Below are positions 9,320 through 11,050 of a DNA stretch of 44,739 bases, in pieces. Source of the DNA: a virus. Taxonomy: Duplodnaviria; Heunggongvirae; Uroviricota; Caudoviricetes. The DNA lies in IMG/VR virus record IMGVR_UViG_647533158_000005. One strand, given 5' to 3'. The notes beneath the pieces are model-generated. The model had not been told where the DNA came from. It saw nothing but the letters and a program-made list of their open reading frames with translations, and ran no database searches. Each line of letters begins with the position of its first letter. Positions within the stretch are counted from its first letter, which is position 1. Both the position numbers and the translations under genes were made by a program.

Positions 9320-9922
9320 TCAGGATACTTTTTCATGTACTGTCATGATAAATACCAGCGGGCTTTCTCCCTGATTTTCATAGAAATGAGGGACGTCTGT
9401 TCTGGCTGTTGCTGAACAGCCTGTTTTTACCAAATACTCGTGCTCCTGTATGCCCAGTGTGAGCGTACCCGATTGAACAAAAAACAGTTCAAGCGTTCCT
9501 TCCGTGTGGCCGGGGGAAGCAAATTTTTCCCCGGGCTGCATTTCCCACATCCAGAGCTCGGTCATATCAGGGCCACCGGAACCTGCGAGCAATCTTGCTT
9601 TCCCGCCTTTTTCACCTTCCCACAATTCAGGGATCTCACTTTCTGTAATGAGATGCACGGTCGGTTTGGAACTGACATCCACAAAATCAGCTACCGAAAC
9701 TCCCATCGCGGCAGCCAGGCGGCATAACATGGTAATGCTGGGATTCGCCCGGCATCCCTCTATCTCAACCAGCGCTCCCTTGCTGACGCCTGCTCGACGG
9801 GAGAGTTCATCAAGGGATATTTTCTTTTGCTTACGATAAAGTTTAATTCGCTGAGATACGGCTTCATTCACAGTGCTGACGATAGAATTTACATCGGTCA
9901 TTAAATTGACTTTTTTGGTCAT
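9320..9922 (-). CDS. XRE-family HTH transcriptional regulator with C-terminal cupin domain
   Basis: 200-aa ORF; N-terminal HTH (ISLDELSRRAGVSKGALVEIE) and C-terminal cupin-like beta-barrel region; divergent from B3/4-domain gene. Confidence 0.7.
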   Translation of the reverse strand: MTKKVNLMTDVNSIVSTVNEAVSQRIKLYRKQKKISLDELSRRAGVSKGALVEIEGCRANPSITMLCRLAAAMGVSVADFVDVSSKPTVHLITESEIPELWEGEKGGKARLLAGSGGPDMTELWMWEMQPGEKFASPGHTEGTLELFFVQSGTLTLGIQEHEYLVKTGCSATARTDVPHFYENQGESPLVFIMTVHEKVS

Positions 9923-9965
9923 TGGTCATTATCATGGAATAAATTAGTCATTATAGGATTGTCAC

Positions 9966-10661
9966 ATGTTAACAGTATCACCGTCAATTGCCCCTGAAAT
10001 TTATCGTATTGCTCCTGGTTTTCGGGCTCTCAGTATCTGCGTAAAAGCTGCGCCAGTGCTTAATCCCGACATTGGAGAAACGGCGCTGCGCGAAGCCTGT
10101 GAAGCCGTTCTGGTCGGTGAACCTGAATGGGCGGAATCTCATCTGGCTGCATGGGCAGAAGTGTTTCAAAAGTTTGGAGCTAAACCTAAACGAACCCCTT
10201 GCTCAGCTGATGCTTTGCGTAAGCGAGTATTACGTGATGGAACGATGCCAACGCTAGATCCTATCGTTGATCTTTATAATGCCGTTAGTCTCCGCTACGC
10301 CATTCCTGTTGGTGGAGAGAATATCTCTGCCTATCAGGGAGCACCACGTCTGGCTGTGGCAAAAGGAACGGAACCTTTTGATACCTTCAAAGAAGGTGAA
10401 ATGACTGTTGAATACCCCTTACAAGGCGAGATTATCTGGTGTGATGATATCGGCGTGACCTGCCGTCGCTGGAACTGGCGACAGGGGATCAGAACTCGCT
10501 TAGGGGTGGAGGCTCAGCAAATGTGGTTTATTCTGGAAAGCCTGCCACAGATGCCGTTGGGGAGACTTCACGAAGCCGGTAAGATGCTGACTAACGGCCT
10601 TGAAAAAATGATGCCAGGTTTGTGGTTTGACGTTGTTCTCATTGAAGAACAACGGCAGTAA
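9966..10661 (+). CDS. B3/4 (tRNA-binding-like) domain protein
   Basis: 231-aa ORF; overall resemblance to B3/B4-domain proteins related to PheT; divergently arranged with the HTH-cupin regulator. Confidence 0.5.
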   Translation: MLTVSPSIAPEIYRIAPGFRALSICVKAAPVLNPDIGETALREACEAVLVGEPEWAESHLAAWAEVFQKFGAKPKRTPCSADALRKRVLRDGTMPTLDPIVDLYNAVSLRYAIPVGGENISAYQGAPRLAVAKGTEPFDTFKEGEMTVEYPLQGEIIWCDDIGVTCRRWNWRQGIRTRLGVEAQQMWFILESLPQMPLGRLHEAGKMLTNGLEKMMPGLWFDVVLIEEQRQ

Positions 10662-10702
10662 TACCACTCAGGAGACACTATTAATACTGAGTTTGGGAAG
10701 AA

Positions 10703-11050
10703 ATGTATATGTCTTTATTCTTAACAAGTTTTATCTTTAAAAAAAAAGAGTATGACGAAGAGTTTTACCAGCTTGATGCGTTAATAGAAAAACATACTCA
10801 GTCCATTGACGGTTATATCGGGATGGAGACTTATACAGATGCTGCCAGTGATAAAATTATTAATACGTATTACTGGAAAAGTCGTGAAGCAATGGATTTG
10901 ATGATAAATGATTTACAACACCGACAGGCAAAAGAAAAAAGTCATAAATGGCTGTCCGGGTATCAGACGATTATTGCTGAAATTAAGGGGTGCCATAATG
11001 TAAATATACAACATCCACTTGCTTCATATTTCATACCATGGAATGAATGA
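10703..11050 (+). CDS. Small ABM/Dabb-fold-like protein
   Basis: 115-aa ORF directly after the B3/4 gene; hydrophobic beta-strand start and size consistent with an antibiotic-biosynthesis-monooxygenase-like fold; AT-rich. Confidence 0.4.
   Translation: MYMSLFLTSFIFKKKEYDEEFYQLDALIEKHTQSIDGYIGMETYTDAASDKIINTYYWKSREAMDLMINDLQHRQAKEKSHKWLSGYQTIIAEIKGCHNVNIQHPLASYFIPWNE

Follow-up and report, generated by a model that had tools for sequence, protein, structure and literature searches.

A ctdA gene with a divergent XRE-cupin regulator in a lambdoid Escherichia coli prophage: a probable canavanine-resistance module

The plant antimetabolite L-canavanine can be charged onto tRNA(Arg) by arginyl-tRNA synthetase (ArgRS), and the stand-alone editing protein CtdA of Pseudomonas canavaninivorans (structure 9f7e) deacylates the resulting canavanyl-tRNA(Arg) (PMC10018355). 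In Salmonella enterica, CtdA (stm2012) is needed for canavanine resistance and, when expressed alone in Escherichia coli, makes this otherwise sensitive host resistant; among the arginine analogues tested, an S. enterica delta-ctdA mutant is sensitive to canavanine only (PMC12449066). Very low concentrations of CtdA hydrolyse the canavanyl-tRNA(Arg) that ArgRS produces; Arg-tRNA(Arg) escapes through an intrinsic preference of CtdA and because ArgRS and EF-Tu protect it, and over-expression of CtdA is not toxic (PMC12449066). Published CtdA work uses E. coli as a CtdA-less, canavanine-sensitive host (PMC12449066). Here we describe a ctdA gene in a 44,739-nucleotide stretch of viral DNA (IMG/VR record IMGVR_UViG_647533158_000005; hereafter the window, to which all positions refer). 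The gene belongs to a cargo block in a lambdoid E. coli prophage, and we consider it likely that this block is a moron encoding inducible, ligand-derepressed canavanine resistance.

The B3/4 protein and its relation to CtdA

Three genes and a shared control region make up the functional part of the block:

9320-9922, minus strand: regulator gene (XRE helix-turn-helix plus cupin), 200 amino acids; intact open reading frame; HTH_3 and Cupin_2 domains
9896-9987, unstranded: divergent control region with promoters and repeats; the spacer between the two genes, 9923-9965, is 43 bp
9966-10661, plus strand: ctdA (stand-alone B3/4 protein), 231 amino acids; intact open reading frame; B3_4 domain
10709-11050, plus strand: ABM-like gene, 113 amino acids; an alternative ATG at 10703 would give 115 amino acids

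In a Pfam search, B3_4 is the sole domain of the 231-amino-acid protein (residues 62-192, E=5e-20, 72 bits against a cut-off of 29). No NCBIfam model matches the protein, and this includes the PheT models. A phmmer search of the PDB aligns it without gaps to two entries: 9mkl, a 'B3/4 domain-containing protein' that corresponds to S. enterica CtdA (E=5e-102, residues 3-226), and 9f7e, the 'CtdA canavanyl tRNA deacylase' of P. canavaninivorans (E=2e-97, residues 1-226). We take 9mkl to be the published S. enterica CtdA structure because a Salmonella B3_4 protein (locus L091, described below) is 96% identical to it. The window protein is 66.5% identical to Salmonella CtdA and 62% identical to Pseudomonas CtdA, the latter two being 64% identical to one another, and the alignments to these proven CtdAs take in the CtdA-specific helical insert (residues 28-92 and 193-200).

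The published list of aminoacyl-pocket residues comprises N105, G116, E118, C166, Q173 and I189; mutation of N105, G116, C166 or Q173 inactivated CtdA, and C166 tunes specificity and marks the CtdA-1 clade off from CtdA-2 (PMC12449066). All six residues are identical in the window protein, with the same numbering, and there is essentially no variation from the proven enzymes in the segments that form the pocket (DLYNAVSLRYA.PVGGEN, GVTCRRWNWRQG.RTRL and MWFILESLP). For a wider comparison we used 80 species-representative ctdA loci drawn from one-genome-per-species contigs (the species loci). Five of the pocket residues are unchanged in 80 of 80, and position 189 is isoleucine in 77 and valine in 3. 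Because of the full-length homology and the conserved pocket residues, including C166, we file the window protein under the CtdA-1 clade and expect it, by homology, to act as a canavanyl-tRNA(Arg) deacylase. It belongs to a sub-clade whose members are 80-92% identical to each other and usually occur with GNAT and DHDPS-family genes on plasmids and islands; the Serratia, Salmonella and Citrobacter plasmid copies are about 90% identical to it.

Regulator, control DNA and the ABM-like gene

The protein encoded divergently from ctdA contains HTH_3 at residues 26-80 (E=3e-10) and Cupin_2 at residues 124-194 (E=5e-13), and it matches the Vibrio cholerae XRE-cupin protein 1y9q over its full length (E=9e-6). 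NCBIfam gives weak, sub-threshold PuuR-like matches only (40 bits against a cut-off of 211). A homologue of the regulator adjoins ctdA in 69 of the 80 species loci and is upstream and divergent in every one of these 69. Where both proteins are present, regulator identity correlates with CtdA identity (r=0.98). The spacer is exactly 43 bp long in 51 of the 69 loci and about 150-165 bp in Pseudomonas.

A promoter scan of 8700-11300 finds two sigma-70-like sites only, both in the divergent control region. The predicted ctdA promoter (P_ctdA) has its -35 element, TTGACT, at 9906-9911, within regulator codons 4-6, and its -10 element, TATCAT, at 9930-9935; the predicted regulator promoter (P_reg, minus strand) has TTGACG at 9987-9982, within ctdA codons 6-8, and GACAAT at 9963-9958. 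Spacing is 18 bp in both, and the P_reg -10 element reads GATAAT with an upstream TG in most homologues. GGTCAnTA repeats at 9896, 9917, 9924 and 9947 overlap both predicted promoters and are candidate operator half-sites. When the control regions of 47 loci from Enterobacterales, Pseudomonas, Vogesella, Halomonas, Chromohalobacter and Aeromonas are aligned, TTGACTTTTTTGGTCAT, GGTC..TA, GTCATTAcAGGATTAT and CCGTCAAT are near-invariant. The consensus consists of three parts, GGTCa.TA.aTTGACTTTtTTgGTCAT, then.GGTC..TAtcATg..aTAAAtT.GTCaTTAcAGGATTaTc.. and finally ATG...CCGTCAAT, and conservation reaches the first codons of both genes, wobble and synonymous positions included.

In other lineages ctdA is often under guanidine-I riboswitches, and canavanine up-regulates the CtdA protein in P. 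canavaninivorans (PMC10018355). Riboswitch control of the window gene was considered and rejected: an Rfam scan of the region finds no riboswitch, sok being the sole match, and the 43-bp spacer is too short to leave room for one. A closer analogy is provided by the XRE-cupin factors of P. aeruginosa, which in a genome-wide study were all local repressors of adjacent genes and are thought to dissociate from DNA once a pathway metabolite occupies the cupin domain, the way PuuR/PauR respond to putrescine (PMC7901475). None of the eight P. aeruginosa factors studied is described as adjoining a B3/4 gene; the regulon of one, PA2312, was not determined. By this analogy, the window regulator would be a ligand-released local repressor of ctdA.

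The third gene most likely starts at ATG 10709 (113 amino acids), since homologues begin MSLFL, the Prokaryotic Genome Annotation Pipeline (PGAP) calls the same ATG, and a GGGAAG Shine-Dalgarno sequence lies 8 nt upstream. Its product reaches no Pfam threshold (ABM, PF03992, 17.5 bits against 23.1; Monooxy_af470-like, PF13826, 20.7 against 25) and matches no NCBIfam model; distant members of its family do pass, P0030 for ABM and P0048 for af470-like. An AlphaFold (AF2) model shows a beta-alpha-beta-beta-alpha-beta arrangement (strands 3-11, 36-44, 49-56 and 86-92; helices 17-32 and 59-76; mean predicted local distance difference test score, pLDDT, 67), and the top 48 Foldseek matches are almost all ABM or dimeric ferredoxin-like proteins (Rv0793, SnoaB, IsdG/I, LsrG, YgiN) with template-modelling (TM) scores of 0.5-0.6. 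There is also weak similarity to Bacillus subtilis YqjZ (E=0.003). We therefore assign the ABM fold with moderate confidence and at superfamily level, an assignment that implies no specific activity. A search at E<=1e-3 recovers 151 cluster representatives of the family out of 1.84 billion, which makes it a small one.

Homologues of the ABM-like protein at ctdA-linked loci are 50-75% identical to it, including those of Salmonella (75%), S. bongori (70%) and Klebsiella aerogenes (65%). In S. enterica, S. bongori and K. aerogenes the whole arrangement recurs: a gene for a 200-amino-acid HTH plus cupin protein is separated by a 43-bp spacer from a divergent gene for a 228-amino-acid B3_4 protein, and a gene for a protein of 112-113 amino acids follows 18-27 bp on. 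The S. enterica trio is chromosomal, between ynaI-like and zirTS-like genes, and it is the characterised ctdA locus, since the B3_4 protein there is the one that is 96% identical to 9mkl. A metagenomic lineage also has the trio (protein P0021; loci L098 and L099). At locus L100 an ABM-like copy (P0022) lies 2.2 kb from a GNAT/ctdA/DHDPS/MFS cluster, and in Atlantibacter sp. RC6 (L077) the ABM-like gene is directly downstream of the regulator, not of ctdA. From this distribution we conclude that regulator, ctdA and ABM-like gene form a conserved unit, not a chance juxtaposition.

Two native ctdA loci have additional, lineage-specific genes downstream of the regulator: in K. aerogenes this is a second ABM gene, of the canonical PF03992 type (L094:3228-3545), and in S. 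bongori a carboxymuconolactone decarboxylase (CMD) plus cupin gene (L092:2415-3494). P0025, which belongs to the ABM-like family but is distant at 38% identity (L101:3655-4366 and L102:1936-2647), is encoded directly after an SMR-family (Multi_Drug_Res) small transporter, beside a GntR-aminotransferase regulator. If that transporter were a guanidinium exporter, the family would be tied to the handling of guanidino compounds, which is speculative.

A second, mobile arrangement is found on plasmids, islands and chromosomes of many Enterobacterales: one or two GNAT genes follow the regulator, and a DHDPS-family gene, in some cases with an MFS transporter gene after it, follows the divergent ctdA. 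Across the species loci, a DHDPS-family gene follows ctdA in 38 of 80, and the two GNATs are neighbours in 20 and 9 of 80. Examples include a copy beside Tn3 on a Serratia plasmid (L006:4283-8877), one on an IncF Salmonella plasmid, and loci L007, L009 and L010-L048. The GNATs of this cassette have no sequence match to the canavanine N-acetyltransferase LcGNAT (PMC10416765), and their nearest solved relative is the hypothetical protein XCC2953. Canavanine acetylation by these GNATs was thus set aside as analogy only.

A foreign block in a cargo slot

Similarity to other E. coli prophages stops at position 8821 of the window and resumes at 11075-11107; in between, 8822 to about 11075, lies a block that related prophages lack at the same site. 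Further features of the block and its surroundings are:

7194-8276: replisome organiser, left of the block
8317-8727: DUF977 gene, left of the block, after the replisome organiser
8821-9252, minus strand: decayed GNAT N-acetyltransferase pseudogene ('GNAT1' type), the left end of the captured block
9018-9178, plus strand: IS1414 (IS256-family) transposase 3' fragment, 160 bp, inside the GNAT pseudogene
11127-11452: sok/hok, right of the block (Rfam sok, 116 bits, at 11127-11302; Hok/Gef open reading frame at 11240-11452)

Positions 8835-9022 and 9178-10678 are 86-91% identical to the Enterobacterales ctdA cassette (for example L010 and L017), and this homology stops 17 bp past the ctdA stop codon. 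The GNAT pseudogene is recognised by tblastn with GNAT1 of the Serratia plasmid (43% identity over 152 amino acids, with several in-frame stops and a frame change); genes of the 'GNAT1' type are normally downstream of the regulator in the plasmid and island cassettes. The insertion sequence (IS) fragment within it matches transposase genes of IS1414 and the IS256 family from other E. coli at 89-96% nucleotide identity, and in three sibling prophages the corresponding position bears the PGAP annotation 'IS256 family transposase, incomplete'. The IS1414 piece at 9023-9178 (156 bp) replaces 155 bp of the GNAT gene (compared with L010:4061-4216), and a replacement of such nearly equal length is not expected from a simple insertion followed by a deletion.

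The segment from 10679 to about 11075, with the ABM-like gene, differs in its affinities. Because the ABM-like protein matches Salmonella at 73.5% identity, whereas the regulator and CtdA match the plasmid cassette at 89-90%, the module is best described as a mosaic in which the ABM segment has a separate ancestry. We conclude from these comparisons that the block is foreign to the phage and was acquired horizontally. IS elements probably helped to assemble and deliver it, and the IS1414 scar is possibly a trace of the vehicle of capture.

The slot between DUF977 and hok/sok is occupied by a QueH gene in about 100 complete E. coli genomes and by unrelated small open reading frames in others; since different genes fill it elsewhere, the sequence comparison identifies it as a cargo-exchange point. 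QueH (epoxyqueuosine reductase; L103:1969-2634 in E. coli strain 190) is a second, unrelated tRNA-related cargo at this site. IS100 is inserted at two different DUF977 positions in the prophages of STEC299 and of the O170:H18 strain introduced below (L096:683-2484 and L097:479-2280); the DUF977 gene of the window is intact.

As a whole, the window looks like a complete lambdoid prophage, with a lambda-type integrase, Q antiterminator, DNA methylase, tRNAs, a NanS-p-like esterase, gpA terminase and J tail tip. The hok/sok type I toxin-antitoxin locus directly right of the cargo is itself complete. At 16329-16484, downstream of Q and the methylase, ARAGORN reports a tRNA-Met(cat) and, directly after it, a tRNA-like gene whose anticodon, 'tttt', is abnormal in having four bases; ileZ/arg tRNAs are often found in this part of lambdoid phages. 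A 646-amino-acid open reading frame at 18004-19944 combines DUF1737, SASA (sialate O-acetylesterase) and DUF6645, the NanS-p-type esterase architecture that is common in Stx-like and lambdoid prophages.

Natural carriage of ctdA is rare in E. coli: it is present in 19 of 5426 complete genomes, 16 times as island versions (82-90% identity) and three times in this prophage form (99%). The three prophage carriers are STEC299 (marmot, China), an O170:H18 strain (Canada) and A10 (wood-wren, Mexico), and the trio is intact in the window, in STEC299 and in the O170:H18 strain, on different continents and at 98-99% identity. Deposited phage genomes include no complete phage with ctdA, only short pieces that lack annotation, for example a 3.3-kb 'Salmonella phage' record, and IMG/VR has one contig (L090) with ctdA, which is the same prophage. 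The CtdA literature searched makes no mention of phages, of the XRE-cupin regulator or of the ABM gene; a literature search for CtdA combined with prophages found no paper, and one for the Salmonella locus tags STM1664-1666 and STM14_2010-2012 found nothing relevant.

Interpretation and comparison with known systems

If the block does confer inducible canavanine resistance, as we think likely, the following sequence of events can be proposed. ArgRS would mischarge L-canavanine to give canavanyl-tRNA(Arg), and CtdA would hydrolyse this product, keeping canavanine out at arginine codons and sparing Arg-tRNA(Arg). The most economical model of control is autoregulated repression: a dimer or oligomer of the XRE-cupin protein on the GGTCAnTA repeats would repress ctdA and the ABM-like gene together with its own gene, until the cupin domain binds an inducer (canavanine or an oxyguanidino or guanidino derivative) and the regulator is released from the DNA. 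The ABM-like gene is probably co-transcribed with ctdA, and in the lysogen both would be read from P_ctdA; because they share the orientation of rightward early transcription, they should also be read through on prophage induction. Tight linkage to ctdA suggests an accessory step for the ABM-like protein, and our best guess is that it may act on free canavanine or a breakdown product, removing the analogue or a toxic product and so limiting a futile, ATP-consuming cycle of charging and deacylation. The lysogen should then tolerate canavanine, because E. coli normally lacks ctdA and is killed by the analogue, and this tolerance would be a case of lysogenic conversion by a translation-quality-control factor.

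A broader proposal, which we hold tentatively and regard as rather doubtful, is that CtdA in Proteobacteria is part of a conserved, mobile system of three parts, an XRE-cupin sensor, CtdA and an ABM disposal enzyme, which makes tolerance transducible by phages. The XRE-cupin protein would do as a protein what guanidine riboswitches do for ctdA in other lineages, sensing canavanine or an oxyguanidino or guanidino derivative, and the ABM-fold protein would remove free canavanine or a toxic product by chemical conversion, breaking the ATP-wasting recharging. Canavanine tolerance would then be phage-transducible in E. coli of legume-eating animals, and, within the literature searched, this would be the first natural phage-borne aminoacyl-tRNA trans-editing factor.

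Several points weigh against inducible canavanine resistance as the function of the block, and they are conveniently taken together with the explanations that compete with it. The CtdAs that have been assayed fall outside the plasmid and island sub-clade of the window enzyme, and one Salmonella plasmid has a member of this sub-clade in a species that already possesses a chromosomal ctdA (PMC12449066), which could hint at a different specificity. With the same fold and chemistry, the sub-clade might edit tRNA bearing another non-proteinogenic amino acid, or have a broader role, and the GNAT, DHDPS-family and ABM partners would process that other compound. The characteristic neighbours named above, the MFS transporter among them, fit this idea, as does the Salmonella plasmid copy; in addition, the authors of PMC12449066 raise possible extra roles for CtdA (C166 leaves specificity relaxed, and CtdA occurs in organisms with no obvious exposure to canavanine), and other deacylase families have diversified in substrate (PMC12449066; PMC13149037). 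We nevertheless think a different substrate unlikely, given that the six pocket residues and the segments around them are identical to those of the proven enzymes, that canavanine is the one arginine analogue tested to which S. enterica delta-ctdA is sensitive (PMC12449066), and that the two proven CtdAs share their activity at 64% identity, the same distance as separates the window protein from either.

The remaining points concern the state and control of the module. No terminator was detected after the ABM-like gene, and this gene differs in ancestry from the regulator and ctdA, so that the trio here is a mosaic. The GGTCAnTA repeats are mostly direct and not the palindromes typical of XRE dimers (PMC7901475), and both operator and inducer are putative. 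Since the GNAT gene is dead in all copies and the regulator and ABM genes of A10 are annotated as frameshifted, selection on the module in E. coli may be weak. Taken further, the pseudogene with its IS1414 scar, the A10 frameshifts, the occurrence of the prophage form in 3 of 5426 genomes and the IS100 insertions that sibling prophages are gaining next door would suit an inert hitch-hiker, that is, a fragment of a plasmid or island cassette brought in by an IS-mediated insertion and decaying in a permissive slot, where it is not usefully expressed or selected. Such inertness seems improbable. All three genes are full-length and intact both in the window and in two independent isolates that differ in continent and host; the promoter and operator region is likewise undamaged and fits the cross-genus consensus; and CtdA works in E. 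coli without host-specific partners (PMC12449066). To an anti-phage defence or toxin module, in which a tRNA-directed hydrolase depletes charged tRNA on infection and the HTH protein is its antitoxin or controller, we give almost no credence. In its favour, the block occupies a prophage accessory slot next to hok/sok, a setting in which defence genes are frequent, aminoacyl-tRNA is what the B3/4 fold acts on, and PADLOC shows a weak resemblance between the regulator's HTH and generic HTH components; against this, CtdA and the ABM-like protein match no PADLOC or PHROG family, over-expressed CtdA is not toxic, ArgRS and EF-Tu shield Arg-tRNA(Arg), the trio stands in the Salmonella core genome between housekeeping-type genes (PMC12449066), and the cupin of the regulator is of the small-molecule-sensing type found in local repressors of metabolism.

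An earlier note on this DNA had anticipated parts of this result. Its three open reading frames are all present and intact; its divergent pair of an XRE HTH plus cupin regulator and a B3/4 gene agrees with the Pfam domains and strands; and its placing of the genes between replication functions and hok/sok is confirmed by the replisome organiser and DUF977 on the left and sok/hok on the right. What it described as a three-gene unit is contained in a larger foreign block (8822 to about 11075), and the GNAT pseudogene and IS1414 fragment had been missed. Its ABM-like label for the third protein holds at superfamily level, from the AF2 model and Foldseek, and falls short of the Pfam ABM threshold. 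The idea of cargo with no obvious phage function agrees with the homology breaks, the plasmid and chromosomal relatives and the absence of the block from related prophages. A regulated, tRNA-directed accessory function, as the note had suggested, is supported by the homology to CtdA and by the conserved divergent HTH-cupin partner; the function is less mysterious than it was made to seem, as the CtdA family, which the note did not name, was described in 2023-2025. Its alternative, a small-molecule-modifying function, may apply to the ABM-like gene only. Co-occurrence of the trio, which it had proposed as a check, is found in S. enterica, S. bongori, K. aerogenes and the metagenomic lineage. 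The counter-case it had envisaged combined a captured chromosomal operon with loss of the tRNA-binding residues: the trio is indeed such an operon, in Salmonella and Klebsiella, and the pocket residues are not lost but fully conserved.

The enzyme family is known, and the enzymology of the window protein is expected to be ordinary for it. Three features are new in this context: E. coli carries ctdA naturally on a temperate phage; the XRE-cupin regulator, a candidate canavanine sensor, is strongly conserved together with the architecture of its putative operator and promoters; and a family of ABM-fold proteins is found almost always beside ctdA. E. coli thus occasionally gains ctdA in nature, and a temperate phage is one route. 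If the canavanine-resistance function proposed here is correct, the prophage would give its host tolerance of a plant antimetabolite, and legume-rich diets would be an ecological reason to keep it.

Among phage-borne elements, the block is comparable with lambdoid morons and lysogenic-conversion cargo such as bor, lom and stx: it is self-contained, has its own predicted promoter, lies between conserved phage genes and is not needed for phage growth. It differs in that the cargo is an aminoacyl-tRNA trans-editing factor with its own regulator of a small-molecule-responsive type, and in that acquisition left an IS1414 scar and a pseudogene, with no terminator detected.

Comparison can also be made with the families to which the three proteins belong. 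The window regulator resembles XRE-cupin local repressors (PuuR/PauR, PsdR, ErfA, PA1884) in its HTH_3 and Cupin_2 domains, its length of about 200 amino acids and its position beside the presumed target; in those systems, as here, regulator and target move together by horizontal transfer, and autoregulation is likely here too because the divergent promoters overlap. It presumably controls an enzyme of translation quality control and not, as those repressors do, a catabolic enzyme or transporter, its similarity to PuuR is weak, and its motifs are mainly direct GGTCAnTA repeats with no obvious palindrome. The third protein has the predicted ferredoxin-like fold and the size, about 100 amino acids, of the ABM or dimeric alpha+beta-barrel superfamily; its identity to solved members is 11-18%, and it falls in a small family of its own that is tightly linked to ctdA. 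With the editing (B3/B4) domain of the PheRS beta subunit, the window B3/4 protein shares a fold, a type of reaction (hydrolysis of mischarged aminoacyl-tRNA) and one asparagine (N105 here), whereas it is free-standing, without the other PheRS domains (B1, B2, B5 and B6-8). CtdA and PheRS B3/B4 are about 14% identical and differ in their pocket residues, and CtdA cannot substitute for m-Tyr editing by PheRS (PMC12449066).

The closest likeness is to the characterised CtdAs, 9f7e and 9mkl. The window protein is likewise a stand-alone B3/4 protein (the three are 228-231 amino acids long), aligns with them without gaps and has the same six pocket residues, and with the Salmonella locus it shares the flanking XRE-cupin and ABM-fold genes and the 43-bp spacer. 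What sets this copy apart is its location, in a lambdoid prophage of E. coli instead of a core chromosome, a canavanine-catabolic operon or a riboswitch-controlled gene.

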